Source: a virus
Direction: 5' to 3' (one strand)
Length of the DNA: 64,000 nucleotides
Virus record (IMG/VR): IMGVR_UViG_3300028025_002503
Span: 6,522-70,521 of that record
The notes beneath the pieces are model-generated. The model searched no databases and was not told the origin of the DNA. It saw only the letters and a list, made by a program, of their open reading frames with translations. Made by a program: the position numbers and the translations under genes. Of this stretch, positions 9,618-56,024 are shown in pieces (the first letter of the stretch is position 1; every line of letters begins with the position of its first letter).

Positions 9618-10487
9618 ATGGCTAAGACAATCATCATAAAGTTAAAAAAGGCTGGCAAAAGAGTGACTATGTTTTCCATATCTGACGATAGAGGAAACAT
9701 ACTTGCTACTGATGTCCCTAAGAGCACTCTGATATCAGGGCTTGCTCTTAGTGTTGATGATTCTGTGAGAGTGGTTGTTCTTACATCAACAGGACTTAAT
9801 TGTTGTGGTAGCGTATGGAACCTTTCTGTTACAACAATAACTAAACCTGAACTAGCAGCTATTAAGTTTCAAGAAGTTAACACAGCATCCATCTGGAAAC
9901 ATCTTGCTAATCCTGTTATATACAACACTTATTACGGATGCATCAGACCATACATTATTGAATATCCTTTTGCATATCAATACAATGATGAGATTCTGCA
10001 GAACGTAAAAGACTATACAAAAGCATACACCTATCTATCTTCAGATGATGGTGTATTTAATGACAACAGGAGAATATCCATCAATGGATACTTTAATAAA
10101 GCAATTCTTTATAATGATCAACAGAGTACAGGTGTGCTTGAACTTGTTGCTAAACCCATGAACAACCTGAAAGAATACTTGAAATACCCTTTATACAACA
10201 CTGATAGTAAGACAATTACGTATACAAAGAGTGATAACTTCTATCAATATAATACGTTCTGGGGACTGGTGAAAGATAAATCCCTACCTTTGTTTACAAA
10301 AACTTGTGAGTCTATGTCCATAGACAAGATTGTAAACCAAGCTAATATGGACTATTCCAAACGTAGTTTCAAAAAAGAACCTCTAAGAGCTAAAGATTTA
10401 AAGGTGAGACACATCCTAGATGACAAATCTAATGTCCACCTAACAAGCCAATTTATCATTACACCAAGCCAAATCTCTTACAAATAA
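9618..10487 (+). CDS. Probable C-terminal portion of the muzzle protein fused to a small N-terminal domain
   Basis: IWKH..YNTYYG..PYIIEY and FNKAILYNDQQSTG resemble the C-terminal region of crAss-like muzzle proteins. Confidence 0.55.
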   Translation: MAKTIIIKLKKAGKRVTMFSISDDRGNILATDVPKSTLISGLALSVDDSVRVVVLTSTGLNCCGSVWNLSVTTITKPELAAIKFQEVNTASIWKHLANPVIYNTYYGCIRPYIIEYPFAYQYNDEILQNVKDYTKAYTYLSSDDGVFNDNRRISINGYFNKAILYNDQQSTGVLELVAKPMNNLKEYLKYPLYNTDSKTITYTKSDNFYQYNTFWGLVKDKSLPLFTKTCESMSIDKIVNQANMDYSKRSFKKEPLRAKDLKVRHILDDKSNVHLTSQFIITPSQISYK

Positions 10488-13330
10488 TGGCAAAGAAGAA
10501 AACACAAGGGTGGTTAGATGCCTATGATGATGAGTTACAATTAGGTGGATATGTCTACCCAGTTAACTATGTGCCACAAGCAGAGAATGGTATTGAGGGA
10601 ACAATGGGTGGATTGACAGATCAAGGCTTTGATTACAATGGTGCATGGGGTGGTCCTTCTATGCAATTTGGTGGTAATCTTGCAGGAGCAGTGGGTTCTA
10701 TGTACGCACGTGTAGGTGCGCCTAGTAATGGTCCTTATGCAAAGAAAACATTAGCAAGTGCACAGAAAGGTGCATCTGTTTCAGATAATACAAGGGTTAA
10801 ACCAGTTATCACTGAAAAACCAATGACTCGTGAAACTGTTAAATCTATAGAGAACCAGTCTTATAGAATGTCTCCTCAGGAAGCATTATTAAATAAATTA
10901 AAAGGAGTAAAGTTAAAAGAAAGTCAAGACAGACTTGATAAAACTGCAGAAAAAATTACAGCAGTTGGTTCTTTCTCTCCAAACCCTTTCATAAGCATAC
11001 CCTCAGCTATTGCTAATTTTACACTAGGAACAACAGGAGCACCTACAGCAGAAGATGCAGGTCTTGATCTTATGGGAGTACTTGGTTCTGTTGGTACTCC
11101 AGAATATGCAAAGAATCTTAGAAAGGTAGCAAGAAGAGTTCCCTTTTTTAAAGGATTAAGTTTTGTTGATGCTGCTTCTGACATATTTGAATTTACACCA
11201 AGTGAAGACTTGTCAAAGAAACAGAACGGTGGAGAAATGAAATTCTACCAAGAAGGACTAGATTGGACTCCTAAAAATATTAGTATGAACGGAAGTAAAA
11301 CACCAAAAGCCCAAGCAGGATGGCAAGAAAAACTTGCTAAAGAAACTGCTAAACTTGATAACCCATTGTCAACATTCCAACTTCTAAAGAAGGGATATTC
11401 AAAGGATGAGATAAAAACAATACAAGACGCTACAGGCAAAGAAAGACCTAAAGTAGGAACTCCTAAAGGAAAACAATTAAGTAAAGAAGAAATTCTTGAA
11501 AGAAACAAAGCGTACGAGGAAGCTAGAAATGTAGAAAGAGGTACAGAAACTCTATCGAATGTTGCAGATTACGCAATGAGTGTTCCTGGAAAACTTTTAC
11601 AAAGTGCATATAAACCAGGATATACAGCAACAGATGCTTTGCTTAATAAACCTAGCGAAGCAGGATTCTTAGAAGAAATGATTGCTGATCCATCAAACTT
11701 AGCATCATTTGGTTTAAAGGGTTTGGCAAAAGGCGTATTAAAAGGACTAGGAAAAAAAGCAGCTACTAAAGGATTGTTGAGCTCTGCAATATTGCCTTTT
11801 TATAAATCAACTCAACGAGATCCTGGTTCAGTTTCTAGTTTTTTATCTAAACTGGATGAAGTAAAAAGTTTATTAACAGAACCAGAGGCTAAAGAGGCTT
11901 TCAGAAGAGTGGGTGATGTTGTAACTTCAAATACCAATAGATCAATAATTGATCCAAGATACGCAGAAGCAATTTCTGATCCTAATCTTCCTTTAAATGC
12001 AATTGATAGATATGCAAAATCGATTACATCAATAGATCCTACAGACAATGCTCTGACTTCTGAACAAATTAAATATCTTAATAATATAACTGGTCTTCAG
12101 ACAAATTATGGTTTGTTAGATCAATCTATTCCATTTCAAGATAGAATGGGATTTGTAATTGAGAATGCCAAGAACATAGCTCCAAGAGATCTTCTTCCTT
12201 ACATGTATGATCTTGATGCTAGGATGTTACCAAATGCTGAAAGAGATAAATTATTAGAAAAACTTTACAAATCATATGGTGGACAGAGCGTAGATAATCC
12301 TATGGCTGAATTCACTGCAGCCACTGATCTTTTTTCATTAGCAGATACATATGCAAATCCATCCTCTAAGCTATCTGATAATATTAAAACAAAGATTAAA
12401 GAGTTATCAACTCTTGGTGAACAAGCTAGGCCCACTGTTGTCATAGATGCTCCTTATTATGACGATAAGTGGTATAACTGGAATTCAAAGAATGCCATTG
12501 ACATGATGGCAAGAAGATGGAATCCAGACAAACGTAGAATAGAACCATATCTATCAATTCCTGATATAACAGAATTGAACAGAGAGTCACGTACACAAGG
12601 AAAAAACATTATAGACGCTGTAAAAAATGTATTTAGTGATCCTGCAAATAAAGGAGAGTTTTATACAGGATCACATAGTTTAAGTACAGATAGTTATCCG
12701 TTAACTCTATCACTGCTTGCTAGAAATAAAGATCTTGTAGATTTTGTTCCAGTTCATGAAGGAGCACCTTTTAAAATAGGAACTGAAACTAATTCATTAG
12801 GTGGACTTAGTAATTATGCTATAAATAGAAGACAATATTTAAATGAAATAAAACCAATATTTGATAACAGGTTTGGCAACATTCCAATTCCACAACAATC
12901 ACGTTATAGTACACCGAGGTCTACAGCTGCCACTAAACAGCTACAAAACCAATTGTTAGAATCTGCACTACTAAACCATCATATCGATGCGTTTAATAAG
13001 AAGATAGGAACTAATATGCCTAGTGCGTATTATTCTGGTTACCACAATGATGTACAAAGACCGAATGTTGGAGCAGTTGTTAAAAAAGATGGAGGTCCTG
13101 TTAAAGATGACATGGGATATTGGAATCCAGAAAACTGGGGAAAGCCTGTAGAAATAAACTCTAATGAAATAACAATGCAAGGAGTTGATCAAGACCTCAT
13201 AGGTGTTTCTGATGCAGGAGATGTAAAACACATGAAGGCTAATAGTCCTAATAATTATAAATTCAAGGGCAAGAAAGTTACAGAATATCCTGTTAAGAAA
13301 AATGGTGGTTGGTTAGATAAATACAATTAA
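10487..13330 (+). CDS. Virion cargo/internal protein with repeated xxxGG motifs
   Basis: 947 aa after the muzzle. LQLGG, MQFGG, KQNGG, KKDGG, KKNGG; GWLDxY at both termini. Confidence 0.6.
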   Translation: MAKKKTQGWLDAYDDELQLGGYVYPVNYVPQAENGIEGTMGGLTDQGFDYNGAWGGPSMQFGGNLAGAVGSMYARVGAPSNGPYAKKTLASAQKGASVSDNTRVKPVITEKPMTRETVKSIENQSYRMSPQEALLNKLKGVKLKESQDRLDKTAEKITAVGSFSPNPFISIPSAIANFTLGTTGAPTAEDAGLDLMGVLGSVGTPEYAKNLRKVARRVPFFKGLSFVDAASDIFEFTPSEDLSKKQNGGEMKFYQEGLDWTPKNISMNGSKTPKAQAGWQEKLAKETAKLDNPLSTFQLLKKGYSKDEIKTIQDATGKERPKVGTPKGKQLSKEEILERNKAYEEARNVERGTETLSNVADYAMSVPGKLLQSAYKPGYTATDALLNKPSEAGFLEEMIADPSNLASFGLKGLAKGVLKGLGKKAATKGLLSSAILPFYKSTQRDPGSVSSFLSKLDEVKSLLTEPEAKEAFRRVGDVVTSNTNRSIIDPRYAEAISDPNLPLNAIDRYAKSITSIDPTDNALTSEQIKYLNNITGLQTNYGLLDQSIPFQDRMGFVIENAKNIAPRDLLPYMYDLDARMLPNAERDKLLEKLYKSYGGQSVDNPMAEFTAATDLFSLADTYANPSSKLSDNIKTKIKELSTLGEQARPTVVIDAPYYDDKWYNWNSKNAIDMMARRWNPDKRRIEPYLSIPDITELNRESRTQGKNIIDAVKNVFSDPANKGEFYTGSHSLSTDSYPLTLSLLARNKDLVDFVPVHEGAPFKIGTETNSLGGLSNYAINRRQYLNEIKPIFDNRFGNIPIPQQSRYSTPRSTAATKQLQNQLLESALLNHHIDAFNKKIGTNMPSAYYSGYHNDVQRPNVGAVVKKDGGPVKDDMGYWNPENWGKPVEINSNEITMQGVDQDLIGVSDAGDVKHMKANSPNNYKFKGKKVTEYPVKKNGGWLDKYN

Positions 13331-13351
13331 AAACCTGTACAACAAAATATT

Positions 13352-16300
13352 ATGAAGAAAGACATTTTAAAAATTGCTGGTGTTAAATCTGAGAAAGAGT
13401 TTTACTATCTCTATCCTACAGAAGAAGCATTCAAGAGAGCTTTTCCAAAAGAGTTCAAAAAAGCTAAGATGGGTGCTGCCATGGTTAAGAAACAATTAAC
13501 CCAGCTTACAGATTTCTCTAATCCTCCACAGGCAGAGATGGGAAGCTATATTGGCGGTGATTCTACAGGATATCAAAATATTAATTTTGGTAAAGTTTAT
13601 GGTGACATTGATTCATCAATTGGTGTACGCAGCCAAATGGAAGAAATGCAGGATAAGATTGATTATCTAAAAGAACAAGATCAAGGTCCAATAGCATCAG
13701 CTCCTCAACAAGGAGGAGGTAATAATGACATGATGCAAAAAGCTGGACAAGCAATTAAGATGGCAGCAATGCTTAAAGGAGTTCCAGTTAATAAACGTGG
13801 TGGTAAGGTTCCTAAATATCAAAATGGTCCAACTGGACAACCATTGATATCTATGCCTTCTGCAGGTCAATTTGCACAATCAGATTATGATATTACAAAT
13901 CAGTTTAATCAAAGTAATCCTGGAGCAAATATTGATGCTGGTGTAAATCCTAACTATGGTCAACAACCTGCTCAACAACCACAACAAAAACAACCTACTT
14001 CTTTAGCCACTACATCAGGAGGAAGACTTATTGATAAAGCTGTAAAACTAACAGGTCCTTTTGCTAAACCTATTGGTAAGGTTATAAATGCTGGTAGGCA
14101 GATTAAACAATCAATTGATCAAGCTGCCCAAGCTAGACAATCTGGTGCTCTTAGTAAGCTTGCACTACAAGCTTCTTCTATGAGACCAGAAGAAACTAAA
14201 CGTAGGTACACTCGTCCTGAAGATGCAATGATTGATCCTAATCAAGTTTCTTCTTCTTATGGAACAGGATATAGCCCAATGCAAGCAACTGCTCAATATG
14301 GTGCAAGTATTGGTGGTAATCCAACAGAGATACAAAATATGTACAATCCTGGAGACATGTATATGGATCTTGGATATGCACCATTGAACGATAATGATAA
14401 AGTGAAACAATATAGGAAAGGTGGTAATATTCTAAAAGCATTACCAGGAGCAGCTGTTGTGGCTTTTGCAAATAAAGTGGGAGATGCAGCACAAGTGGCT
14501 GGTGATGTTGGTAGTGGACTTATAGATATGGGCACTGAGAGGCGTATGAAACAGAATCAACAGATGCTTGGACAAACTGCTTTCCAGTCAGCTACACAAG
14601 GAATGCAAAATCAAAATGCTGCATTCATGGAAGATGGTGGATGGGTTAGTCACGATTGGCAACCACAAGTGATTACACAATTTGGCGGCTACAATCTCAA
14701 AGATCTTCTTAAACCTGACCCAACTATGGACACTCTTAGAGCTGGTGGACATTTAAAGAATTACGCTCCTCCTAGCGCACAAGCTATGTCTACAGAAAGA
14801 ATGGCTATGGGTGGTCAACTTAAAACTACATGGGGTGGATATGCTGAACCTATTTCTTATAATCCACATCTCCCAGGATCTGGAGAAACTGTAATGTTCA
14901 GGGGTAAGTCACATGAAGAAAGTGATGGAAATGGACATACAGGAATTGGTGTTAAGTATGGTAGTGGTGGTCACGATAGCTACACTGATTATGCTGAATA
15001 TGGAACAGAACAAGCTGATGCTGATGTTGAAGTGGAAAGAGGTGAACCAGCTACAGAACTTATGGATAGAGCCACTGGGGAAACTAGTATGATTGTTTAT
15101 GGTGATATGAAGATTCCTTCTTATGGTGTAAGTGAACTTAAAGATCCAAAAGCAAAAGGTAAGAAGTTTAAGAACTATGCAAACGATCTTAGTAAGATAG
15201 AAAAAAGACAAGTGTCTATTCTAGAGAAAGCTATTGATAAATTATCAAAACTTGATCCAACAACACCATTTGAGAAACTAGAATTTGACAGCTTGTCTAA
15301 AGTTGCAGATGGTGCAAATATGAAACTCAAAGGACTTGCTGCTCAAAAAGAACTTCTTGCAGGAATCCAAAATGCAATTCTAGATACATCAAAAGAATTT
15401 GGATTGAAGAGTGCTGAACTTGCCAAGGGTAAGATTAAACAAGAAGAAGATCCAGAAATGGCTAAGTTTGGTGGTAAGTTTACACAAGCTCAAAAGGGTA
15501 AGAAAGTTGAAAAGAAGCTTACTAAAGCTGAACTTGCAGCATTGGCTAAGCTTGCTAAAACTATGAAATATACACCACCTACAGCAGCAGAATTAGCAGC
15601 TGAACAAGAACAGCTTTACAAAGACCGTCCTGAGTTTAGACCTCAAGAATATAAAAATCTTACAGAAAAAGAACAAAATGCACTTCATCGCAAACGATCT
15701 ATAGAACTTGGACCTAGATTAGACCCTATGGATTTACAAAAGCTCACTGGTATACCCAATGCTGTTGAGTTAGCTGCAATGGATGCTAAATGGAGAACCA
15801 ACTCAGGTGGACAAGATGGTGACTTGATGAATCTATGGAGAGAAGTTCAACCCTACTTAACTCCTAGTAATCAAGAACCATTTGATGCTAGTCAAATTTC
15901 ACCAGAAATAATGGCTCTTGCTACTAATCAACTAGAACCTGTACAAGCACAAACATTCAAACCTCAGCTAGAAACACCATATAGTGTATCTATGCAAGAT
16001 CAACTGAATGCTAACCAAGCTGACTTCAATGCTCTACAGAGGCAAATGGGATATAACCCAGCAGCTGCAGCAGCTCTTGCTGCACAGAAATATGCAGCCA
16101 ATTCTGCTATTCTTGCACAACAACTTAGAGCTAACCAAGAAATGCAAATGGGAATGTTCAATAGAAACATAGGAGTGCTTAATGATGCCACTCTTAAGAA
16201 CCTTTCTATTCTAGATCAACAGCAACAAAAACAATCTCAAGCTAGATCAGCTACAAAAGCACAAGGTCAAGCAGCTCTTAGTTCTATAGCAGACAAAATA

Positions 16301-16546
16301 GCTAAACATAAACTAGAGAACAGAACATTGGGAGTTTATGAGAATATGTACAATTATAGGTTTGGTCCTAATGGAAAGGCTATTAATGTAAATGCTCCTT
16401 ATGAGTTCAATCTTGATGTAGCCAGCTTAACTCCTGAAGAATTAGAAACTGCTAGAAAATATAGAGATATTCAAGAAAAGAAAGGAAACAAAAGACAATT
16501 AACTGGTAAAAATGGTTCTCTTGTAAAAGCTATCAAAAATCTCTAA
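13352..16546 (+). CDS. Virion cargo protein (crAss-like C1-type), Gln/Met/Gly-rich
   Basis: 1064 aa; many xxxGG motifs, GKSHEE and EVERGE segments, Gln/Ala-rich helical C-terminus. Confidence 0.6.
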   Translation: MKKDILKIAGVKSEKEFYYLYPTEEAFKRAFPKEFKKAKMGAAMVKKQLTQLTDFSNPPQAEMGSYIGGDSTGYQNINFGKVYGDIDSSIGVRSQMEEMQDKIDYLKEQDQGPIASAPQQGGGNNDMMQKAGQAIKMAAMLKGVPVNKRGGKVPKYQNGPTGQPLISMPSAGQFAQSDYDITNQFNQSNPGANIDAGVNPNYGQQPAQQPQQKQPTSLATTSGGRLIDKAVKLTGPFAKPIGKVINAGRQIKQSIDQAAQARQSGALSKLALQASSMRPEETKRRYTRPEDAMIDPNQVSSSYGTGYSPMQATAQYGASIGGNPTEIQNMYNPGDMYMDLGYAPLNDNDKVKQYRKGGNILKALPGAAVVAFANKVGDAAQVAGDVGSGLIDMGTERRMKQNQQMLGQTAFQSATQGMQNQNAAFMEDGGWVSHDWQPQVITQFGGYNLKDLLKPDPTMDTLRAGGHLKNYAPPSAQAMSTERMAMGGQLKTTWGGYAEPISYNPHLPGSGETVMFRGKSHEESDGNGHTGIGVKYGSGGHDSYTDYAEYGTEQADADVEVERGEPATELMDRATGETSMIVYGDMKIPSYGVSELKDPKAKGKKFKNYANDLSKIEKRQVSILEKAIDKLSKLDPTTPFEKLEFDSLSKVADGANMKLKGLAAQKELLAGIQNAILDTSKEFGLKSAELAKGKIKQEEDPEMAKFGGKFTQAQKGKKVEKKLTKAELAALAKLAKTMKYTPPTAAELAAEQEQLYKDRPEFRPQEYKNLTEKEQNALHRKRSIELGPRLDPMDLQKLTGIPNAVELAAMDAKWRTNSGGQDGDLMNLWREVQPYLTPSNQEPFDASQISPEIMALATNQLEPVQAQTFKPQLETPYSVSMQDQLNANQADFNALQRQMGYNPAAAAALAAQKYAANSAILAQQLRANQEMQMGMFNRNIGVLNDATLKNLSILDQQQQKQSQARSATKAQGQAALSSIADKIAKHKLENRTLGVYENMYNYRFGPNGKAINVNAPYEFNLDVASLTPEELETARKYRDIQEKKGNKRQLTGKNGSLVKAIKNL

Positions 16547-16634: not shown

Positions 16635-19463
16635 ATGGCTTCATATACAGACGCAATATCACAATTTAACCCCTACGTTCAACAGCTTCCAGTAGAAGCC
16701 ATGTTGAAAGTTGGTACGTACAAGCAAGAGAAGTATGAAGAAGGGGTACAAAGAATCCAAGGTCAAATAGACAAAGTTGCTGGTTTGGACATTATTAAAG
16801 ATGCAGATAAACAATATCTTCAATCTAAACTTAATGAACTAGGAAGCAAGTTAAAAACTGTAGCTGCTGGTGACTTCTCAAACTTCCAATTAGTCAACTC
16901 TGTAGGAGGAATGGCTAGTCAAATTGGTAAAGATAATAAGGTGGTGAATGCTGTAAGTTCTACAGCATGGTATAGAAAACAGAGAGAAAAAATACAAAAA
17001 GATACAGATGAAGGAAAATCAGATCCTTCAAATATTTATGCTTTTGATAAAAGAGCAGCAGATTGGTTAAATAATGATGAGGCAGGTCAAAAATTTTCAG
17101 CTGATTATGTTCCTCATTTTGACATATTCAAGTTTGCAAAAGAAACCTTTGATGCTGTAGAACCAGACGGATATTCCTTTGATCAGATTTATCAACTTGG
17201 AGAAGATGGTAAACCCATGACCATTGAATCTAAAGATCCAAGAACTGGAAAAGTTACTAAAAGCCTTGTGTACTCTCCAACAATGACAAGACTTGAGAAA
17301 GAAGGAAGACTTCCTAAAAAGGTTCAAGAAACCATATCTCAAATATTTTCTGATCCTAGAGTGAGTCGTCAATTAGGTATTACAGGTGAATATAACTATA
17401 GAGGATATGACGAAACTGGACTTGCAGATAAAGTGATTGCTCAGAGAGATGATTTGATAGATGACTATAATGACACTCTTGCTGATTTAAATATTAAAAA
17501 GACTTCAGGAGAAGATGTACAAGACCAGATAGATGCTGTTGAACAAAGACTTGCCACTGTAAAATCTAACTACGATAAATACTTAGAAACTGTAAAAGAT
17601 AATCCTGATGCAATTAGAGGAAAGTTGTATGAGGATGATGTGTATTCCAGATATTCCACAATGTTTGGAAAGATTAAGACAAAGACACAGATAATGGAGA
17701 ATCCTGCATGGAGAGCTCAATTTGATGTGCAGAAAGAAGCAAACGCACAATCTAGGTGGGCTCAAACAGAAGCTAGACAAAGATTGGAGTTTAAAGAAAC
17801 AAAAGAACTTGAAAGAGAAAAATTATCCCAAGCATGGAATATTGCTGTATTAAACGCTTCTACAAAAGGTAAAAAGAATGCTGCCAAAGGATTCGGTACT
17901 CCTGAAGATACTAGTGGATTTACACAAGGTCAGCAGTTTAGTGATACAGATGTTATCTTTTTAGCTGATAAAGATTATAGAACTGCCGCTGACACTTTCT
18001 CAAAAAGTTCAACAAACTTAGTTTGGGATCAAGCATGTGCTGGTATTGTATCAAATGAAAAAAGACTTTCTGATTTAGTAAAAAGTGGCAAGTCACCAGA
18101 AGAAGCTAAGTATACAATATTAAAAGAAATAGCTGATAGGCGTGGTGTTCCATTGGAAGAGTTTATGACAGGTTACACTCAAAAGATAATAACCAATTAT
18201 AACAATCTCACTCCTGAACAAAAAGAAAAGAACCCTCTTCTTGTAGATCAATATAATGTATATAAAAAATCATTAAGGGGATTCCAAACTCAGAAAGATA
18301 TTAGAAATGATATAGATGCTCAAACAGAAGCTCTATATGGAAAAACCATATCTAGAGAAATTGCGCTAAAAGATATTAAAGATCAAAAGATCAAATTGCG
18401 TGGTGTAGAATATGATATGACTAAAGATGATATATACGATTTGTCTGTATATCTAAAAGGTAGATTGTCTGTACTAGGTACAGCTGGTGGTGTAGATGAG
18501 GGTGTAAGAAAAGCTTCTACAGCAGCATTAGGTAGGCTTAGAGCAAGAGGTAAAGAAGAATTAGCAGATGCACTTATTGAAGATAATCTTGGAAGAAGAG
18601 CATATAGGGGTGGTCCTATTTCGTTCATGACAGATTTTACAAAAGGTTTATTTGGATTGAAAGATGCTTACAGACTAATTAGGTATAGTGACGATACAAC
18701 TGATCCATTCTCTCAAATTGAAAAAGTATTTAAGGTTATTGATAATGATCAATTTGCAGGTGGTTTAAAAGCAAAAGCTGATGTAATTAGAAAAAATTAC
18801 AACATACAACCTAATATGCGTTCAGAATTATTCACTGGTGATAGTGAAACTGACAAGAATCTTTTGTACATGGTGAAAGGGTTTACAGGTGGTTATGGTA
18901 CAAAAAGTGGCGGAAGAATAAATGCTTCTGGTGATTTTGCTGATTTTGCTAAAACAATTGCAGGTGCTGATGCTCCTGATAAAATTTCATTAGATGTACA
19001 ACCTACAATAGGAGCTGATGGAAACGTAAGTGTAGAGATAGTTGCTTACAATAAAGATGATATGAGTAGGGCAGGTGGGATGACACTGCAGCCTGATGAA
19101 GCTGCTAAACTTGGTACAGATGTAAACACTTTGTATGAAACAAGAGAAGTGGCTGCTTTAAGAAACAAACTAAACTTCAATCAAGGAAGTAGCTCTGCAG
19201 CTAGTCCAGCAGAAAAATCTACATATATTCAAGGAGACGCATATTTTGATGCTGAAGACTTTGGACAATTAAAGAATTCAGGATTTAGTGCAAAAGGCAA
19301 CATTATAAAAAATGGTGGAATATATTATCCATACATATATGTTACAGATGGTCAAAATGAAAAAGTTAGACAGTTAGTAGGTAGCCCAAGTCTTGGCGCT
19401 GCTGTAGGTGCTTTGTTAAGCACAAATTCAACATATGCTAAAATGATTTTAACTGAAAAATAA
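16635..19463 (+). CDS. Putative ejection/cargo protein preceding the virion RNAP
   Basis: 942 aa helical protein starting with FNPYVQQLP; TAATG-coupled to the giant ORF, as in crAss gene order. Confidence 0.55.
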   Translation: MASYTDAISQFNPYVQQLPVEAMLKVGTYKQEKYEEGVQRIQGQIDKVAGLDIIKDADKQYLQSKLNELGSKLKTVAAGDFSNFQLVNSVGGMASQIGKDNKVVNAVSSTAWYRKQREKIQKDTDEGKSDPSNIYAFDKRAADWLNNDEAGQKFSADYVPHFDIFKFAKETFDAVEPDGYSFDQIYQLGEDGKPMTIESKDPRTGKVTKSLVYSPTMTRLEKEGRLPKKVQETISQIFSDPRVSRQLGITGEYNYRGYDETGLADKVIAQRDDLIDDYNDTLADLNIKKTSGEDVQDQIDAVEQRLATVKSNYDKYLETVKDNPDAIRGKLYEDDVYSRYSTMFGKIKTKTQIMENPAWRAQFDVQKEANAQSRWAQTEARQRLEFKETKELEREKLSQAWNIAVLNASTKGKKNAAKGFGTPEDTSGFTQGQQFSDTDVIFLADKDYRTAADTFSKSSTNLVWDQACAGIVSNEKRLSDLVKSGKSPEEAKYTILKEIADRRGVPLEEFMTGYTQKIITNYNNLTPEQKEKNPLLVDQYNVYKKSLRGFQTQKDIRNDIDAQTEALYGKTISREIALKDIKDQKIKLRGVEYDMTKDDIYDLSVYLKGRLSVLGTAGGVDEGVRKASTAALGRLRARGKEELADALIEDNLGRRAYRGGPISFMTDFTKGLFGLKDAYRLIRYSDDTTDPFSQIEKVFKVIDNDQFAGGLKAKADVIRKNYNIQPNMRSELFTGDSETDKNLLYMVKGFTGGYGTKSGGRINASGDFADFAKTIAGADAPDKISLDVQPTIGADGNVSVEIVAYNKDDMSRAGGMTLQPDEAAKLGTDVNTLYETREVAALRNKLNFNQGSSSAASPAEKSTYIQGDAYFDAEDFGQLKNSGFSAKGNIIKNGGIYYPYIYVTDGQNEKVRQLVGSPSLGAAVGALLSTNSTYAKMILTEK

Positions 19464-22400
19464 TGCCAGATCAAGAAAATCTCATAAACAGAAAAGGTGT
19501 AGCGTTAAATCTTCCAAAGACACCAATCGTTCCTTTTTTTCCATCTGCTCCAGCAGCAGAAGATGGATTACCAGGAATGTCAGTGAATGATTATTTTTCA
19601 GCAAAACTGAATGCTCAAAAGCCAGCAATTGAAGATATTCCTGTGTCTTCATTTTATATTGGAGACAGGTATCCAGAAACTAGACCTGGTACTGATTATG
19701 AGGAAATGGCTGGTCAACAGCAATCATCATTAGATAAGTTGGCAAATGGTACAGTTAAGATGTTAGGTAGTGCAACCACCTCTTTTGCATCTGGTACTGT
19801 TGGTTTATTGTATGGAACTCTAGCTTCTGTATTTGAACAAAGGTTGGCATCATTAATTGATAATGATGTTACTAGGCAGATGGATAACATGTCCAAGAAA
19901 TTGGAAGATGTTCTTCCAAACTATTATACGAAAGCGGAAACAAATGCTGAATGGTATTCTCCAAACAACGTTCTCACTGCAAACTTTTGGTCAGATAAGA
20001 TTATTAAAAACCTTGGATTTTCTTTAGGTGCAATTGCAGGTGGTGCAGCTTGGTCTTCTGTATTTAAAAGTATAGGACTTACAAATGCATTGGTAAAAGC
20101 AGGTGCAGGAATGGAAGCTGCTACAGCTGTAGAGGCTGCAATGACACAGTCTCCTAATCTTCAGAAATATAATGCAATTGAATCTGCACTAGGTTCTCTT
20201 TCACAAAAATATATAAGAACTCCTGCCTCCTCATTATTAAAAAATTCAGACAGAATCCTTACGTCTGCAATGGGAACCTTTGGAGAAGCATCTATAGAAG
20301 GTTTGCAAAATTTAAATGAGTTTAGAAACAAAGCAATTAATGAGTATAGGGATTTGTATGGTAAAACTCCAGAAGGCAAAGATCTCGAAGATATAAATAA
20401 ATTTGCTGATAAAATAGGTATGTACACATGGGGCTTTAACACAATGTTGCTTACAGGTACAAACTACATTCAACTTCCTAAAATCTTAGGATCTTCAAGA
20501 AGAGCTGATAAGGCAATGATCAATGAAATTGGTCAGGAAGCTATTGGTGGTGATTTTACAAAAACTGTTGCAAGAACAAGATTTGGAAAACTAGTTGATG
20601 GTGCACGAGGTGTAGGATCTTTGATATTTGCTCCATCAGAAGCATTTGAAGAAGGTGCTCAGTTTGCTGTTCAAACAGGTGTAGATAATTATTTTGAAAG
20701 AGCATATAAAAATAAAGAAGGCGTAAAATCATTCTTTCAGTCAATGAATGAGGTGGGAAAGAATGTATTTGGTGAGGGAGTAGAAGAAACTCTTGGTACA
20801 AAAGAGGGCTTGGAGAACATCCTTATTGGTGGACTATCGGGTGGACTTCAGCAATCTGGAATTGTAGGAACATATACAGATGAAGAAACTGGTAAGACAG
20901 GTATAGGGTTTGGTAAATCTGGAACACTTGGAGAACAAGGACTGTTTGGTCTTGGTGGTGAAAAAGGAAAGAACACAGATCTTGCTGTAGTTGCGCTTAA
21001 TAAAACTAAGCTTCCTCAACTATTTAAAGATGGTGCAAAGTATTTTGGAATAGGTATGGGTTCTCAACAAATGAGACAAGATGCTATTGCCAATAATGAT
21101 AAACTTTCTGAAAAAGATTATGAGGCAGATTACATGTTCTCATATCTTATGCCAAGAGTTAAGTATGGTAAGCTAGCGTCTGTTGATGGTGAGCTTGCTG
21201 CTTATGAAAGTCAGGCAATGACAGTTGATGGTTTCAATGAGTTAAAAACTAGTGGCATTGTAAACAAAGAAGAATCAAGAGAACAGTTTCTTGAAAGAAT
21301 CAACCATGTTAGAGAGACAGCTAAAGACATGGACAGGTTATATTCAACTATCAGAGACAAGTATGAGACTGTATACGATGATGACAATAAGAGAAAGTAC
21401 TCAGATGCAGTTTTGGATAAGCTTGTATACGCTGCGTCAAAGATTAAAAATTACGACAGTAGGATTCCTAGCTTAAATGAAAAATTAGTTATATCAGGAG
21501 TGGATGCTCAATCTATAATTGATGATGTTGTTAAGACAGGAAACCTATCTGAAGAAAGTGTAAAAGATGTAGCTGACCAAATTAATAAGCTTAATGGTAC
21601 TGATGATCAAATAGAAGATAGTGTTCAGAATGTAAAAGACCTTGCAGAACTTGCATTAAGGAGAAAAAAGTTTATTGATGACTACAATGCAATAAAAGCC
21701 AATCCTAAAAACTTTGAAGATGTTCCAGATGTTCCCAAAGCTCCTGAAGGTGCTGAGGTTTCCGAAAAACGTACAATTAAACTAAAGACAAAGATTGGAG
21801 AAAAGGATTTTGAAATAGGTACAGAGTATTTTCTTGGAAAAAGAATTTATAAGACCAAAGAAGGATATGAAGTTTATAGGTTTCCAAAACTCACTATTCT
21901 TGGAGAGAATGAGGATGGTACAATTAAAATCAAAGATAGTGATGGGGGAGTGAGGGATGTTTCTAAAGCTGTATTGGCTGAATACAGACTTCATAAAGTG
22001 AGTGATGTTGCTACAAATGAAAATGCAAATTTTTATTTAAGGAACATGAATAATATAGTGTACTGGAATAGAGGAAAGGATAAAGGGGGTGAGGTTCCTG
22101 GTAGACTTGTATATGATGATAATGGTAAACTCTATTTTGTATATAAGAACAAAAAAGGAGAGATTAAAGAAACAGAAGTTGGACTTGATTCATTTAAACC
22201 TAAGAAGGGATATTTGAATGGAGTGTTTAGGTTTGGGCAAACTCTTACTAAAGAAGATATTGCTGATATTGAAAAAAGAGAAGCATCTGGAAAAACAAAA
22301 GAAGACGTAGAATCAAGAAGGGCTAATAGATTAAAAATACTTAGTGATCTATTTGATGAGGTTTCAGATAAACTAACATCTACTAACAATCTCATTCAGC

Positions 22401-46282: not shown

Positions 46283-46288
46283 TATATT

Positions 46289-47638
46289 ATGGCTATTTTA
46301 TCTAAACAGATAGGATATAGTCAAGAGTCAACCCTCTTGTACGAACTTCTTAGGGAGCTCACTAGGCTTTCTGCAATTACGTCTAAACTAGATAATATTA
46401 ACGTAATTGTTGACGATGGTATCACTTATGCTGATAGTACAGGACTAGATGCTTTTGCTAGACTTAGAACATCTACACCATTCACTCTTGGAGACTACAA
46501 ACATATCTATGGACTAAATATAAACTTTATAGACAAGTTGACAAATGGTGGAACTGTTACATTTCAACCAGATCAGGCAAGTGCTTTGTTAGCTACAACA
46601 TCAAATCCTGCAAGCAGTGCTGTTCATCAGACAAAAATCTATCACAACTATATTCCTGGAAAGAGTCAATTGATATTTTCAACTATTTGTTTTAAAGCTC
46701 CTGTTGTTAATGTTACAAAGAGAACAGGGTATTTTGATGAGAATGATGGTATCTATTTTGAGCAAAATGGTGCTGGTGTCTTAAGTTTTTGTGTAAGAAC
46801 AAGTACTAGCGGAACACCAAGTGATGCTTCTAAAGTGGCACAATCCTCTTGGAACACAGATAAGTGTGATGGTACAGGACCTTCAGGATACAATTTAGAT
46901 ATAACCAAAACACAGTTCTTTTATACAGACTTCACATGGTTAGGTCTTGGTAGAGTGAGATGTGGGTTCTTAGTTAATGGACAATTTATAATAGCTCATG
47001 AGTTTAGAACATCTAACACAATCGATGTTCCTTACATGGCTAATCCAAATCTACCTGTAAGATGCGAGATATTTAATACAGGAGCTACAACAGGTGGATC
47101 ATTCAATCAGATATGTTCAACAGTTATGAGTGAAGGTGGGGATGCTGATGCTGGTCAAGACTGGTCAACATTAAACACAACATTAAGATCTGTTGCTGCA
47201 GGAGCTACGCTTCCTTTGTTAGCAATTAGACTAACTAACACATTCCAAACCTATCCAAATAGAGTGTTTGCTCGTCTCCAAGAGTTCAGTCTTTATTCAG
47301 TGAAAGAACCTCTTACGTATATAGTGATAAAACTTCCAGATTCTTCTTTCTTAACTGGGGAAACATGGAATCCTGTAGACGCAAGATCTGCTGTAGAATT
47401 TAGTGTAAATGCTACAGCTTACACAGATGGACTTGTATTTGCTTCAGGATATGTTTCTGCAGCTGTTGGGAACAGAGGGTCTGTAAATTCTGATCCAAGT
47501 GCATCAAATGCAAGACAAAATTACATTTCACAAAATTACGATTCTACAGATTCAGAAATCTACATAATTGCTGTTACCAATCTTGGAACAACAACAACAA
47601 CAGCAGGAGCATCTATTCAGTGGAGAGAAGTATATTAA
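46289..47638 (+). CDS. Virion surface protein: QIG-adaptor plus beta-sandwich (lectin-like) domain
   Basis: ATG 46289; N-terminal KQIGYSQESTLLYEL; DAFARLR, GYFDENDGIYFE and WLGLGRVRCGF segments. Confidence 0.6.
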   Translation: MAILSKQIGYSQESTLLYELLRELTRLSAITSKLDNINVIVDDGITYADSTGLDAFARLRTSTPFTLGDYKHIYGLNINFIDKLTNGGTVTFQPDQASALLATTSNPASSAVHQTKIYHNYIPGKSQLIFSTICFKAPVVNVTKRTGYFDENDGIYFEQNGAGVLSFCVRTSTSGTPSDASKVAQSSWNTDKCDGTGPSGYNLDITKTQFFYTDFTWLGLGRVRCGFLVNGQFIIAHEFRTSNTIDVPYMANPNLPVRCEIFNTGATTGGSFNQICSTVMSEGGDADAGQDWSTLNTTLRSVAAGATLPLLAIRLTNTFQTYPNRVFARLQEFSLYSVKEPLTYIVIKLPDSSFLTGETWNPVDARSAVEFSVNATAYTDGLVFASGYVSAAVGNRGSVNSDPSASNARQNYISQNYDSTDSEIYIIAVTNLGTTTTTAGASIQWREVY

Positions 47639-50294: not shown

Positions 50295-50310
50295 TCTAAA
50301 ACATTTAGAC

Positions 50311-50952: not shown

Positions 50953-50963
50953 AAACAAAAATA

Positions 50964-51374: not shown

Positions 51375-51384
51375 ATTCTAAACA

Positions 51385-51810: not shown

Positions 51811-51826
51811 TATAAAACAATAAACA

Positions 51827-52681: not shown

Positions 52682-52694
52682 AAACTAACATAAA

Positions 52695-53105
52695 ATGGCA
52701 AAATCCCTATTTCCAGAAGACATGATGTCAAAGTCTGGAGGAGCTATGACTCTTGAAACCATCGCAGCAAAGCTCACGTATTTCCATGAACAGTTGCATT
52801 TATTGCATTGGCAGACAAGCTCTTATGCTGAACATCAAGCTCTTGGAGGATTGTACGATTATTTACATGATTTCAAAGATGGATTGATTGAAAAGATTAT
52901 GGGATATACAGGGAAACGTCCTGGTGTTTATAAAATTGATGCTCTTACATCAACACCTGCTGCTTCTGTAGTTAGTGAACTGATGTCATTTGCTTCTAGC
53001 CTGAAAGATTATGGTGAAGCAAATTCATATCACGATGTATGTAATCTTGCTGATTCTCTTTCTGGAGAAGCAGCTAAAACAAAATATCTGCTAACTCTGA
53101 GTTAA
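52695..53105 (+). CDS. Ferritin/Dps-like four-helix protein (DUF5856-like)
   Basis: HLLHWQTSSYAEHQALGGLYD...DGLIEKIMG and C-terminal KYLLTL. Confidence 0.75.
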   Translation: MAKSLFPEDMMSKSGGAMTLETIAAKLTYFHEQLHLLHWQTSSYAEHQALGGLYDYLHDFKDGLIEKIMGYTGKRPGVYKIDALTSTPAASVVSELMSFASSLKDYGEANSYHDVCNLADSLSGEAAKTKYLLTLS

Positions 53106-53386: not shown

Positions 53387-53388
53387 AA

Positions 53389-53426
53389 AATAAATTTGGC
53401 AATTCCAAATTTATTATCTATATTCG
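53389..53426 (+). promoter_or_regulatory. Promoter with an 11-bp inverted repeat over the -33 box
   Basis: AATAAATTTGG-N5-CCAAATTTATT (53389-53415); TTTG-N20-TATATTCG (53419-26). Confidence 0.6.
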
Positions 53427-53450
53427 CCCCTAAAACCAAAAATTAAATAT

Positions 53451-53690
53451 ATGTCACAAACTTACGACAGGAATAAAGCCTATAAATGGACACCAAATGA
53501 TGAATTCCTTCTTTCTGGAGCAGAATTTGGTACAATATTAAACGCTTTCCGTGCTGTTCTTTCTACACCAGAAGCTCAAAAAATCATAATGGTTGAAAGA
53601 GCTAATGAAGCAATTGAAAGTGTTTTAGCTAGAGCAGTGGAATCAGGTCAAGTTGTGGAATCTATAGAAGATAATCCATCATCACTATAA
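53451..53690 (+). CDS. Hypothetical protein
   Basis: 79 aa, directly after the promoter. Confidence 0.65.
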   Translation: MSQTYDRNKAYKWTPNDEFLLSGAEFGTILNAFRAVLSTPEAQKIIMVERANEAIESVLARAVESGQVVESIEDNPSSL

Positions 53691-53692
53691 AC

Positions 53693-53773
53693 ATGAACCT
53701 CTGCGGTATACATATAAAAGAATTAGATAAAGACGGACTATGTTCAATTTGCTTGATAGAATCTCAAAAATAA
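53693..53773 (+). CDS. 26-aa CxxH...CxxC micro zinc-finger protein (not in the ORF track)
   Basis: MNLCGIHIKELDKDGLCSICLIESQK; fills the gap exactly and is TAATG-coupled to the next gene. Confidence 0.6.
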   Translation: MNLCGIHIKELDKDGLCSICLIESQK

Positions 53774-54129
53774 TGGCTACAATTAAAAAACTATTGCAAT
53801 CTTCTCCAAAGATGCGTAATGTAACACCTGTTCCGAATGGTCCCTTGGTTAAGAAAAAAGGACCATACAAAGGATCTACTCTCAAAGATGGTGGAAAGGT
53901 TAACGTTGAAGCTGGTGGAGAGAAGCATGTAGTTTATAAAGCTGCTAAAAAGAGTAATAAAGCTACCAAAGGAGACATAATTGTAAACCATCCTACAAAA
54001 GACAAGGGTCAATGGGACACAATCAATCTCACCAAAAAGGGCAAAGCTAAAACTGTTAAAGAAGGTGTGGCTGCTACAAAGAAATGGCACAAAGACAATC
54101 CTGATTACAAATATAAAAAGTCTAAATAA
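53773..54129 (+). CDS. Lys-rich small protein
   Basis: ATG 53773; contains LKDGG. Confidence 0.7.
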   Translation: MATIKKLLQSSPKMRNVTPVPNGPLVKKKGPYKGSTLKDGGKVNVEAGGEKHVVYKAAKKSNKATKGDIIVNHPTKDKGQWDTINLTKKGKAKTVKEGVAATKKWHKDNPDYKYKKSK

Positions 54130-54281
54130 TGGCAAAAGCAATGTCAAAAGCTAAAAACATCTCTGCAGGTGTTGGTGGCAAAGGAAAGAAAGCTCCTATG
54201 GTAGATCCTAAAGGTGCTTGGACAAAGATTCAAGAACGCACACTTGGTGCTAAGGGTAAGAAATCATCTAAAAAGAAATAA
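54129..54281 (+). CDS. Lys-rich 50-aa protein
   Basis: MAKAMSKAKNISAGVGGKGKKAPMVDPKGAW...; TAATG-coupled. Confidence 0.65.
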   Translation: MAKAMSKAKNISAGVGGKGKKAPMVDPKGAWTKIQERTLGAKGKKSSKKK

Positions 54282-54282
54282 A

Positions 54283-54546
54283 ATGGCAGCTGCTAAGAAA
54301 ATTAAGAAGGCACAAGTTGGTGGCAAGTATCAGTCTATGGGAGATGCTACTAAAGTTAGTGCTAAAAAATCCAAATATGTTTCTGAAGACGGAAACTATA
54401 AAATGAAATTTAAAGGTGGGGATGATAATTCTGCACCTACCAGTGCTGTTCAAAGAAGAACAGTAAAAGGATTTTTAAAAGGAGCACCAAAAGCTGCTGG
54501 TAAAATGACTTTGAAATCTGGTGGTAAAGTTTCTAAAAAGAAATAA
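54283..54546 (+). CDS. Lys-rich protein with KAQVGG and LKSGG motifs
   Basis: 87 aa from ATG 54283. Confidence 0.7.
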   Translation: MAAAKKIKKAQVGGKYQSMGDATKVSAKKSKYVSEDGNYKMKFKGGDDNSAPTSAVQRRTVKGFLKGAPKAAGKMTLKSGGKVSKKK

Positions 54547-54548
54547 CC

Positions 54549-54710
54549 ATGGCTACAGATAAAAAGTGGATGCAAAAAGCTTCTGCTTCTATTAAACGTA
54601 GAGGTACAGAAGGTAAATGCACTCCCATCACCAAACCTGGATGTACAGGTAAAGCTAAAGCCCTAGCTAAGACATTCAAAAAGATTGCTAAAGCTCGTAA
54701 AGGTAAATAA
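54549..54710 (+). CDS. Lys-rich 53-aa protein
   Basis: MATDKKWMQKASASIKRRGTEGKCTPITKPGCTGKAKALAKTFKK... Confidence 0.7.
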   Translation: MATDKKWMQKASASIKRRGTEGKCTPITKPGCTGKAKALAKTFKKIAKARKGK

Positions 54711-54711
54711 G

Positions 54712-55062
54712 ATGGCTAGAATACCTAAGAACAAAGTGTATAATCCACAGAAAGCAGAAGCTTATGTAGGAAAAGATGTTCTTAAGAATGGTGGTAAAAC
54801 ACCTGCTTGGACACGTTCTGAAGGAAAAGATCCAAAAGGTGGACTCAACCGTAAAGGTGTTGCTAGCTATAGAGCTGCTAATCCTGGATCTAAACTTAAG
54901 ATGGCAGTAACCACTCCTCCTTCAAAATTAAAGAAGGGTAGTAAGGCTGCTAATAGAAGAAAGAGTTTCTGTGCAAGGATGTCAGGGGTTAAAGGACCTA
55001 TGACAAAACCTAACGGTAAACCTACAAGAAAATCACTGGCACTTAAAAAATGGAATTGTTGA
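54712..55062 (+). CDS. Basic phage protein, DUF6321-like
   Basis: AWTRSEGKDPKGGLN...RRKSFCARM...KKWNC. Confidence 0.7.
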   Translation: MARIPKNKVYNPQKAEAYVGKDVLKNGGKTPAWTRSEGKDPKGGLNRKGVASYRAANPGSKLKMAVTTPPSKLKKGSKAANRRKSFCARMSGVKGPMTKPNGKPTRKSLALKKWNC

Positions 55063-55063
55063 T

Positions 55064-55213
55064 ATGAAAAAGATGATTAAACGTAAAGATGGATCTGTAT
55101 CACAACATGGTTTGTGGGATTCTATTCGTGAGAACAAAGGATCTGGAAAGAAACCTACAGCACAAATGTTAAAGCAAGAAAAGAAGATTAAGTCACAAAC
55201 TAAAAAGAAATAA
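55064..55213 (+). CDS. Lys-rich 49-aa protein
   Basis: MKKMIKRKDGSVSQHGLWDSIRENKGSGKKPTAQMLKQEKKIK... Confidence 0.7.
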   Translation: MKKMIKRKDGSVSQHGLWDSIRENKGSGKKPTAQMLKQEKKIKSQTKKK

Positions 55214-55215
55214 TT

Positions 55216-55869
55216 ATGGCAACTGTTAAGAAAATTAGAAGAGCTCAAGATGGTGAAGATGTACCATGTCCTCCAGGTGGGGGTGGAAAATGTAGACCAT
55301 CTGGTTCTCCCAGATTTTCTATAGGTGCTAGTACTTCAGGAGGAAAAGGAAGAAGTTATAAAATAACTAAAGAAGATGAGGAAGAGGGTAGAATAAAAAG
55401 GATTGGTGAAAGAATAAAGACTAGTGCTAAGAACTCTGTTCCACAATCAACTGCTCCTGGTGTAAGAGGTGAAAAGAAAGGAAAAGAAAGTTTTTTTGGT
55501 GGTGATAAAGATATTAACGAAGCTAAATACGGAAAGAAAATGACAAAGATTAAAAAAGCTCAAGTAGGTAAACTTGTAACTAAGAAGAAAGCTGCTGTAG
55601 ATTCAGTTGAAAGTGAAATGTATCCTGGTAAGATGATTCCTAAATCTTCTGTAACCAAAGGACCATACATCACTCCTAAGAAATCTACTCCTAAGAAGAA
55701 AATGAAATCTGGTGGATCGTTCCCTGACCTTAATAAGGATGGTAAGATCACTAAGGCTGACATTCTTAAAGGACGTGGAGTTATTAAGAATGGTGGTAAG
55801 ATGGCAAAGAAAGCCAAGTCTGGAATGAAAATGATGAGTGGTGGTAAATGTAAATATGGTTGTAAATAA
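55216..55869 (+). CDS. Lys-rich protein with multiple xxxG(G) motifs and an EF-hand-like loop
   Basis: RAQDG, AKYG, KAQVG, MKSGG, IKNGG, MMSGG; DLNKDGKITKAD. Confidence 0.7.
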   Translation: MATVKKIRRAQDGEDVPCPPGGGGKCRPSGSPRFSIGASTSGGKGRSYKITKEDEEEGRIKRIGERIKTSAKNSVPQSTAPGVRGEKKGKESFFGGDKDINEAKYGKKMTKIKKAQVGKLVTKKKAAVDSVESEMYPGKMIPKSSVTKGPYITPKKSTPKKKMKSGGSFPDLNKDGKITKADILKGRGVIKNGGKMAKKAKSGMKMMSGGKCKYGCK

Positions 55870-56024
55870 TGACATCAGGTAAAGCTAAGAAATCAGGCAA
55901 ACCTAAAAAGGCTCCTAAAGTTCCTAACTCTAGACCTAAGGATAATTATATGAAGGAAGCTGACACAAAGCTTCGTCTTAAGAGTCCTCAGTGGCCTATG
56001 AAACAAAAGCGTTTATCAAAATAA
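55869..56024 (+). CDS. Lys/Pro-rich 51-aa protein
   Basis: MTSGKAKKSGKPKKAPKVPNSRPK...; TAATG-coupled; ends at the terminator. Confidence 0.65.
   Translation: MTSGKAKKSGKPKKAPKVPNSRPKDNYMKEADTKLRLKSPQWPMKQKRLSK

Follow-up and report, generated by a model that had tools for sequence, protein, structure and literature searches.

Short glycine-ended motifs at the termini and module boundaries of cargo-slot and small basic proteins in a crAss-like phage

The stretch of DNA considered here, the window, comprises 64,000 nucleotides (bases 6522-70521 of the 70,521-base contig IMGVR_UViG_3300028025_002503), has a GC content of about 35%, and is that of a crAss-like phage with a Crassvirales-type virion module of capsid, both rings and muzzle. 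At issue are short glycine-containing motifs that recur in two places, two large proteins encoded 3′ of the muzzle gene and a distant cluster of small basic proteins. The genes concerned, with the conserved parts of the first of them, are as follows.

10487-13330, plus strand: 947-aa mosaic cargo-slot protein, blocks of which are matched in 26 syntenic loci
10487-10801, plus strand: its N-terminal conserved predicted-disordered region, carrying MAKKKTQGWLDAY, LQLGG, AENG, MQFGG and SAQKG
11219-11320, plus strand: its module KQNGG-EMKFYQEGLDWTPKNISMNG...KAQAG (residues 245-278), 56-80% identical in 19 of the 26 loci
13082-13330, plus strand: its KKDGG linker, M6 beta domain (KDDMGYWNP...KVTEYP) and C-terminal KKNGG-WLDKYN, from alignment and AlphaFold2
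13352-16546, plus strand: 1064-aa protein, with tblastn matches in 23 of 29 loci
53740-54129, plus strand: small basic ORF of 129 aa with LKDGG; the probable true start is at an internal MATIKK
54129-54281, plus strand: small basic ORF of 50 aa, no AQxG/hKxGG motif
54283-54546, plus strand: small basic ORF of 87 aa, with N-terminal MAAAKKIKKAQVGG and C-terminal LKSGGKVSKKK
54549-54710, plus strand: small basic ORF of 53 aa, no motif
54712-55062, plus strand: small basic ORF of 116 aa, an N-terminal piece ending VLKNGG followed by a DUF6321 domain
55064-55213, plus strand: small basic ORF of 49 aa, a GLWDSIRENKGSGKKPT module, no motif
55216-55869, plus strand: small basic ORF of 217 aa, with N-terminal MATVKKIRRAQDG, internal M-TKIKKAQVG, MKSGG, an EF-hand-like loop, IKNGG, MMSGG and C-terminal CKYGCK
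55869-56024, plus strand: small basic ORF of 51 aa, last in the cluster, no motif

An earlier reading of the letters alone (the sequence-only reading) had listed 29 instances of what it took to be a single genome-wide tag, and all 29 are present in the proteins to which they were ascribed, nine in the 947-aa ORF, 11 in the 1064-aa ORF and nine in small Lys-rich ORFs (53740-55869). The tag itself has to be given up in its single form, as there are at least three classes of motif, [K/P/S]-A-Q-x-G, [K/Q/R]-x-G-G and (GG)WLDKY, with WLDKY limited to the 947-aa slot and half of the eight small basic ORFs motif-free. An excess over composition-matched shuffles, the test set beforehand, is present in the large proteins and in the small cluster. 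With shuffles that preserve the composition of each protein, the two large proteins (2011 aa) have 12 occurrences of [KRQ].GG where 2.7 are expected, a count reached in none of 2000 shuffles, and four of AQ.G where 1.1 are expected (reached in 43 of 2000). Four small ORFs (549 aa) have three of AQ.G against 0.10 and five of [LIMV][KRQ].GG against 0.34, neither reached in 2000 shuffles; for all eight (752 aa) the corresponding expectations are 0.15 (1 of 5000 shuffles) and 0.41 (none of 5000), and the regular expression of the sequence-only reading scores 6 against 1.2 (8 of 5000). These figures are to be read with the caveat that the patterns were sharpened after the data had been seen and that the loose expression by itself carries little information. 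The contig's remaining 50 ORFs, which total 20,064 aa and include the replication genes, have no excess (AQ.G 2 against 4.1; [LIMV][KRQ].GG 4 against 3.3), which bears out the remark that the motif is not a repeat in the replication genes.

That such motifs are merely what a Lys/Gly/Gln-rich composition yields by chance draws on the looseness of the regular expression, on plain GG being only mildly raised in the eight small ORFs (16 against 9.3; 67 of 5000 shuffles), and on an unconserved look-alike elsewhere on the contig. Against it are the shuffle tests, the invariance of alignment columns, the recurrence of the distribution in relatives and the placement at termini throughout the families described below, and it is very improbable. 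The look-alike is in a 321-aa ORF (L032:2120-3085) that is 5′ of the window, right after the capsid gene, and that has near its N-terminus LQTMQGGLAQKG (MQGGLAQKG), with both motif types adjacent. Its candidacy as a third tagged class was rejected; four relatives read MQGGLATKG or MDSGLSQKG, and because of this lack of conservation it is probably a different signal.

The restriction of the motifs to large proteins at the crAss cargo position and a distant small basic cluster recurs in related phages. Among 312 ORFs extracted from 29 loci for comparison of motif density, those with two or more [LIMVAKYF][KRQM].GG are 947-slot, 1064-slot or small basic ORFs, the exceptions being three giant-ORF fragments at the lowest densities. 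An N-terminal [KRP][AY][QKR].G within 20 residues of the start is present in 11 of 368 ORFs, nine of them small basic and two 947-slot proteins, and the 13 small basic ORFs of three relatives have AQ.G six times against 0.39 and [LIMV][KRQ].GG 13 times against 1.0 (each in none of 2000 shuffles). A DNA pattern for K-A-Q-x-G gave 13 matches in five records and its reversed control none; the five matches inspected (three in the window's contig and two in the complete genome G003) are all inside these genes. In four of the five records the corresponding pattern for WLDKY is limited to the slot of the 947-aa gene. A DNA-level repeat or recombination site was considered and rejected because the motif codons (those of GGWLDKY) vary synonymously; selection is therefore on the protein. 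Just one of 10 Pfam domains examined has motif sites inside it, the sites flanking the others, and the motif glycines are invariant across homologues, outside folded domains and at breakpoints of insertion and of shuffling. The motifs are short linear motifs, selected at the protein level, in predicted disorder and at termini and module boundaries.

In the 947-aa protein three blocks are conserved (residues 1-99, 238-280 and 865-947), with a variable payload at approximately residues 281-864. All nine motifs are inside these blocks as judged from the 26 related loci, and residues 510-800 are matched in none of these loci. The first two blocks are predicted-disordered modules; the third is the beta domain M6 followed by the C-terminal KKNGGWLDKYN. 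The N-terminal region aligns in 19 rows at 44-88% identity to the window row, and AlphaFold2 was run on it and on M6 at equal depth, with 19-row alignments for both. For the N-terminal 105 residues mean pLDDT is 50 and pTM 0.13, the sole structure being a 4-residue helix at WLDA, while the core of M6 reaches pLDDT 80-93, its KKDGG flank is below 50 and the C-terminal KKNGGWLDKYN is at 52-60; the GG motifs of the protein are in low-confidence flanks of the models. A fold search with the M6 model against the PDB returned nothing at E<=0.001, the best rows being cupin-like or PrfA beta barrels with TM of about 0.3. We rejected the idea that 'ISDTGD' in M6 is retropepsin-like, as the residue after Asp is T, A, E or Q, and the Asp itself is gone in two relatives (L023 and L024). 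The full 947-aa protein has no Pfam, PHROG or PDB match, and phmmer of it and of the 1064-aa protein against PDB sequences gave nothing useful. Atlas models have pLDDT 0.34 for the 947-aa protein and 0.47 for the 217-aa protein; Atlas searches with the two met unnamed viral clusters only, and a match of the former to LPD23, at 0.79, is under the trusted level.

The C-terminal 88 residues, the M6 region, match at least 470 proteins of 520-1658 aa at E<=1e-3 (498 candidates), and the counts that follow are for 120 listed homologues. Pfam domains are present in 32, with names confirmed on eight proteins, and the payloads include SLT (22), ART-PolyVal (4) and ADPrib_exo_Tox (2) as well as LysM+YkuD, LysM+Amidase_2, Glucosaminidase and His_Phos_1. 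An HExxH module is present in 37. Some homologues are multi-domain (LysM+YkuD, LysM+Amidase_2, SLT+HExxH), and the window's own member is without a recognisable domain. A WLDKY-like motif is C-terminal in 118 of the 120 and within the first 45 residues in 84, with 72 internal copies besides, so 274 sites in total against 4.0 in shuffles; GG precedes 148 of them and not the other 126. A zinc-ribbon-like leader comes before MKNGG-WLDKY at the N-terminus of 24. The family is a mosaic in which short, conserved, predicted-disordered modules flank swappable payloads.

The 1064-aa gene always comes next after the 947-aa slot, and its product has no Pfam or PDB match. Its conserved motifs are KKA[KQ]xG, VKQYRKGG, EDGG-W, LRAGG-H, MxMGG-QL and AKFG(G)K...AQKG. 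A 14-row alignment (mean identity to the window protein 39%) has the GG of YRKGG and of LRAGG invariant in 13 of 13 homologues, that of MEDGG and MAMGG in 12-13 of the 13, and K-A..G of KAKMG, A-K-.-G of AKFGG and A-Q-.-G of QAQKG in 11-13; NKRGG and KYQNG are in a variable stretch of the same alignment and are unconserved. Four inserts in the homologues reach 60 aa or more (two in L008, one each in L014 and L018); each of them adjoins an xxGG motif, and three also have, no further than three residues from their start, an xxGG that belongs to the insert. The rule does not extend to smaller inserts of the C-terminal half. A candidate M23-like reading of 'SHEESD' was rejected, the second Asp and HxH being unconserved.

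Natural fusions of the two large proteins are pertinent to what WLDKY may contact. Among 30 longer relatives, two (P0262 and P0264, probably one evolutionary event) are 947-type/1064-type fusions without any WLDKY and without the 1064-aa N-terminal domain, and 27 of the 28 unfused ones end in a WLDKY-type motif, one of the 27 (P0247) with the variant NWFNKYE, which is outside the scripted pattern, and P0261 being the exception. A third fusion, in L002 (3986-8473), has lost the C-terminal WLDKY together with the 1064-aa N-terminal domain and has retained an N-terminal WLDAY. These cases hint that WLDKY docks on the 1064-aa protein's N-terminal domain; as evidence they are weak because deletion at the junction gives the same pattern trivially.

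The small basic cluster (53740-56024) is of eight tightly packed ORFs, each with 25-33% Lys+Arg and four of them below 60 aa, that start a few bases from the preceding stop or overlap it by 1 base and in most cases end in Lys runs. Relatives retain the cluster with its pieces shuffled. The piece ending VLKNGG that precedes DUF6321 here precedes another module in L028, the swap being exactly at VLK[NR]GG, and the orthologue of the 129-aa ORF is nearly identical in L027 and in L028 has its module joined at GG to a different N-terminal piece. The 217-aa ORF corresponds to two ORFs of L027, the start of the second being its internal M-TKIKKAQVG. The 217-aa family has at least 1392 proteins at E<=1e-3, and among 120 listed members the leader M-x-x-V-K-K-A-Q-x-G is N-terminal in 83 by a strict pattern and in 100 by a loose one (it is present in two of the eight small basic ORFs of the window), the residues preceding GG are mostly [MI]-K-x, and 95 end in C-x-x-G-C. 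Since 12 of 14 internal copies of KKAQxG have a Met no more than six residues upstream, these copies are taken to mark fused genes. Residues ~168-179 of the 217-aa protein, and most family members, have SFPDLNKDGKITKADILKGRGV, which resembles a calcium loop of EF-hand/dockerin type; the Pfam Dockerin_1 match to the 217-aa protein is weak (E 0.033).

In the 116-aa ORF DUF6321 (PF19846) is matched over residues 38-114 with E 5e-23 and 81.9 bits, the cut-off being 28.5, and LKNGG is directly N-terminal of it. The domain is present in 528 phage records, mostly of cyanophages and pelagiphages, and its genes are among structural genes in Syn19 and in the pelagiphage HTVC115P. In Syn19 (L030, 99180-100343) it is the C-terminus of a 387-aa Lys-rich protein encoded beside the small terminase gene, and this protein contains MKMKGGK and NAQGD stretches. 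Directly upstream of the window's cluster is a gene for a DUF5856/phrog_858 protein annotated 'starvation-inducible transcriptional regulator' (136 aa; 52695-53105), which is conserved at that place in L027-L029.

Shuffling of this sort is what would be expected if the motifs were passive flexible Gly hinges and the evolutionary legacy of shuffled modules, with no recognition function. Breakpoints of shuffling and insertion do coincide with motifs, the fusing and splitting of small basic genes leaves old N-termini internal (the 12 of 14 copies with an upstream Met), and a stretch FGG-x5/6-A[QK]xGKK is common to the 1064-aa and 217-aa proteins. However, non-Gly residues (A-Q, K and W-L-D-K-Y) that are invariant across homologues of 30-50% identity exceed the needs of a hinge, the strict N- or C-terminal placement of KKAQxG and WLDKY is left unexplained, and the synonymous codon variation speaks against simple recent copying. 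As a full account hinges are unlikely, though well ahead of chance.

The composition of the small proteins brings in another possibility, that KKAQxG, KxGGK and KKAGKSPKK are DNA-binding elements in the manner of histone H1 or protamine that bind the packaged genome, with similar patches of the large proteins lying against DNA. SPKK is a DNA-binding motif and there are SPKK-like stretches in family members; the Lys+Arg content of the small ORFs, the low pLDDT of the Atlas model of the 217-aa protein, which is consistent with a disordered basic protein, and the location of DUF6321 genes in structural regions of Syn19 and HTVC115P point the same way. It accounts neither for WLDKY nor for the acidic or aromatic modules in the 947-aa protein nor for a placement so strictly N-terminal, and no DNA-binding family was matched in the Pfam and PHROG scans. 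We regard it as rather improbable, more so than hinges.

What is known of the surrounding genes bears on whether the motif carriers are virion proteins. The relevant matches are these.

2301-3026, plus strand: ring protein 2, Pfam CrAss_Ring_2, E 2e-17
3504-4436, plus strand: ring protein 1, Pfam CrAss_Ring_1, E 2e-14
4452-9368, plus strand: muzzle protein, Pfam crAss_MUZ, E 3.5e-34

The major capsid protein, encoded by the contig 5′ of the window, matches Pfam Crass_capsid with E 7e-28 over profile positions 15-489 of 496, and all four matches exceed the Pfam curated cut-offs. The closest cultured capsid proteins are distant, those of Leptolyngbya phage Lbo-JY46 (26% identity) and Flavobacterium psychrophilum phages (22%). 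Following the muzzle gene are ORFs of 75, 289, 947, 1064, 942 and 4581 aa, and the order ring 2, ring 1, muzzle, 289-aa, 947-aa, 1064-aa, 942-aa and giant ORF is kept in all 26 related loci, in which rings and muzzle are 56-100% identical while the 947-aa protein is mosaic. The 947-aa and 1064-aa genes are thereby at the position of the ΦcrAss001 cargo-protein genes, 3′ of the muzzle gene and 5′ of the giant ORF, a likeness that is positional only. The 4581-aa ORF (19463-33208), in the spot of the crassvirus RNA-polymerase-associated cargo genes, has no Pfam match at E<=0.01 and no enrichment of motif.

Several neighbours deserve mention in their own right. Directly upstream of the ring genes is a homologue of the PHROG 'DNA repair exonuclease' (1048-2301; phrog_704, E 9e-46), in which GNHDE and GDKHH resemble metallophosphatase motifs; 17 of the 26 loci keep it there, and several of those without it end short of that point. 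A 'virion structural protein' of 449 aa (46289-47638; phrog_1645, E 9e-104) shares 48% identity with a cyanophage S-RIM32 protein, and 179 phage records, the majority from cyanophages, have matches to it, an unexpected tie between a crAss-like phage and T4-like cyanophages. Two ORFs of the replication block (57002-57679 and 60327-60758, minus strand) have, by eye, the look of homing endonucleases, with GIY-YIG-like and HNH-like motifs respectively.

Two literatures are pertinent to large proteins in such a position. In ΦcrAss001 gp45 and gp46 are cargo proteins 1 and 2, gp47, gp49 and gp50 are RNA-polymerase-associated cargo, and of gp45 only short segments, which bind portal, tail barrel and muzzle, are ordered (Bayfield et al. 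2023, PMC10172136). The virion module is the same, and there too large, mostly unmodelled cargo proteins are beside giant RNA-polymerase-associated ones; the short ordered segments of gp45 recall the short conserved modules of a disordered or variable chain here. On the other hand, in the portions of PMC10172136 consulted neither WLDKY at termini nor AQxG/xGG motifs nor a cluster of small basic proteins is described, and the window's cargo-slot proteins, which share their position with gp45 and gp46, are without Pfam match. Polyvalent proteins are multi-domain effector carriers delivered with the DNA, for which processing through a zincin peptidase embedded in them has been proposed (Iyer et al. 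2017, PMC5512222). Members of the 947-aa family resemble them in carrying ART-PolyVal, ADPrib_exo_Tox, SLT, amidase and HExxH modules, but the window's member has no recognised effector or peptidase domain, and conserved disordered linkers with identical N- and C-terminal WLDKY are not described for polyvalent proteins in the parts of PMC5512222 at hand.

The sequence-only reading had seen in the motifs an address or a cleavage tag for the prohead. That they are real, conserved, confined to two places and at module boundaries has held; a protease in the window has not been found. The idea of cleavage is that a virion protease cuts after ...AQxG or ...xGG, so removing a leader of some 10 residues from the small proteins and splitting the large ones. 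Conservation is mainly N-terminal of the putative site with a variable residue after it, the motifs are in accessible, low-confidence linkers between modules, inserted modules bring an xxGG of their own, and some homologues have the zinc-ribbon leader before MKNGG-WLDKY where others begin M-K-K-WLDKY. The HExxH module of 37 of the 120 listed family members is suggestive too, as Iyer et al. (PMC5512222) argue for processing of polyvalent proteins by zincin peptidase domains, citing P1 DdrB.

The search for a protease was, however, negative for the window. No Pfam or PHROG peptidase match was found among the scanned proteins of window and contig, neither HExxH nor another peptidase signature is present in the 947-aa or 1064-aa protein, no embedded zincin-like peptidase (MPTase) is in evidence in the window's cargo proteins, and the sole HExxH among the contig ORFs is in the DUF5856 protein. 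Peptidases C48, C39, S78 and C5 were sought in five related records, two of them complete genomes with terminal repeats, and S77 and ClpP in the window's contig and four of the related records. C48, S78, C5, S77 and ClpP were matched in none of five records each, the C5 and S77 negatives being uninformative because no control genome matched, and C39 had no match above the cut-off, just one at a sub-threshold 13.5 bits. Given that no protease was found, sorting and cleavage are both still matters of inference. Also against cleavage, family members without HExxH, some two thirds of the total, have the motifs no less conserved, nothing beyond six residues would be released by a cut at the GG that precedes the C-terminal WLDKY[NK], and 126 of the 274 WLDKY sites lack a preceding GG. 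The ΦcrAss001 paper, in the text consulted (PMC10172136), has no word starting 'cleav' or 'proteoly'. Full-text searches of the library used returned no relevant paper on WLDKY, DUF6321 or proteolysis of crAss-like cargo proteins.

Precedents for such processing exist in very different viruses, and the window's motifs resemble each of them imperfectly. In T4 the internal proteins IPI-III and Alt bear a capsid targeting sequence that the gp21 prohead protease cuts and that is both address and cut site; as an N-terminal leader of about 10 residues it is common to small basic internal proteins and a large injected ADP-ribosyltransferase, and the site is reused across head proteins. By analogy, the KKAQxG of the window's family may be a short N-terminal leader shared among putative internal proteins. 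The suggestion of a T4-style leader survives to the extent that AQxG is at the extreme N-terminus of most proteins of the small family; a T4-type prohead protease was not found in the records searched. The T4 sites, moreover, end in Glu (L/I-x-E) and those here in Gly, the window's motifs are also internal and C-terminal, and T4 encodes its protease, whereas in the window's contig and four related records Peptidase_S77 had no match, with the control uninformative. Adenain cuts adenovirus core proteins at (M/I/L)-x-G-G|x, and C39 peptidases cut double-glycine leaders. Sites ending in Gly-Gly in small basic, putatively DNA-associated proteins and in larger putative virion proteins could be likened to these, but the hydrophobic residue here is five rather than four positions before the putative cut, one position further from GG than in the adenain, ubiquitin-type and double-glycine leader consensus, no C5 or C39 match exceeded the cut-off, and the virus realms are different. 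All told, cleavage is a possibility that we hold somewhat doubtful, though it stands ahead of hinges.

The reading we favour, tentatively and with a probability short of even, is that the motifs serve virion cargo as joints and as handles for docking or packaging. The 947-aa protein would be a 'polyvalent' payload carrier, hypervariable and occupying a fixed slot that follows the muzzle gene, with its payload swapped freely among relatives and its modules kept constant, namely (GG)WLDKY at both ends, AQNG-IEGTMGG..., MQMGG..., EMKFYQEGLDW and the M6 beta domain. The constant disordered pieces may hold the chain to conserved partners, which could be the 1064-aa neighbour, parts of the tail barrel or portal, or the packaged DNA, and handles and joints together might let the chain thread out one module after another. 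The small basic proteins would be a tandem array of paralogues that fuse and split, in which the M-x-x-V-K-K-A-Q-x-G leader and the [MI]-K-x-G-G joints may be handles of the same kind, for co-packaging with DNA. We infer virion residence, which we take to be most likely, and any binding partners and sorting role for the carrier proteins.

Several considerations count against handles and joints. The low pLDDT from a 19-row alignment is a mere proxy for disorder, half of the small cluster does without motifs, and the resemblance of large to small proteins could reflect a shared Lys/Gly-rich composition or an ancestry in shuffled modules instead of a shared function. The L002 fusion, in keeping N-terminal WLDAY without the 1064-aa N-terminal domain, makes the idea that WLDKY docks on the 1064-aa protein not clean, and the binding partners proposed for the handles are putative. 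The 947-aa, 1064-aa and 129-aa proteins have no tblastn match in 50,697 phage records, megablast with the same three against cultured phages was equally without match, and the lineage has no cultured member. Nevertheless handles and joints are preferred to cleavage, passive hinges, DNA-binding patches and chance, in that order, with the proviso that these readings are not mutually exclusive. A bolder version, which we consider unlikely, is of a small 'cargo code', new to the literature, in this crAss-like lineage, whereby basic proteins of H1-like kind and large effector carriers would be marked for incorporation by an N-terminal K-K-A-Q-x-G leader of about 10 residues and by x-G-G joints, possibly with cutting by an unrecognised protease, such that any payload cassette with these motifs at its flanks would be packaged and go on to be injected.

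The ways in which podovirus-like phages select internal proteins, store them and eject them are poorly understood, with a single crassvirus structure to go on. Here a large uncultured lineage has a fixed gene slot in which payloads (cell-wall hydrolases, ADP-ribosyltransferases and putative peptidases) are exchanged between invariant, predicted-disordered handles. If the motifs are signals for incorporation or processing, they would provide a sequence rule for spotting injected proteins in metagenomes, for mapping arms races between phage and host, and for loading foreign proteins into particles. If they are joints only, they still define the module boundaries of a mosaic protein family that has not been described.

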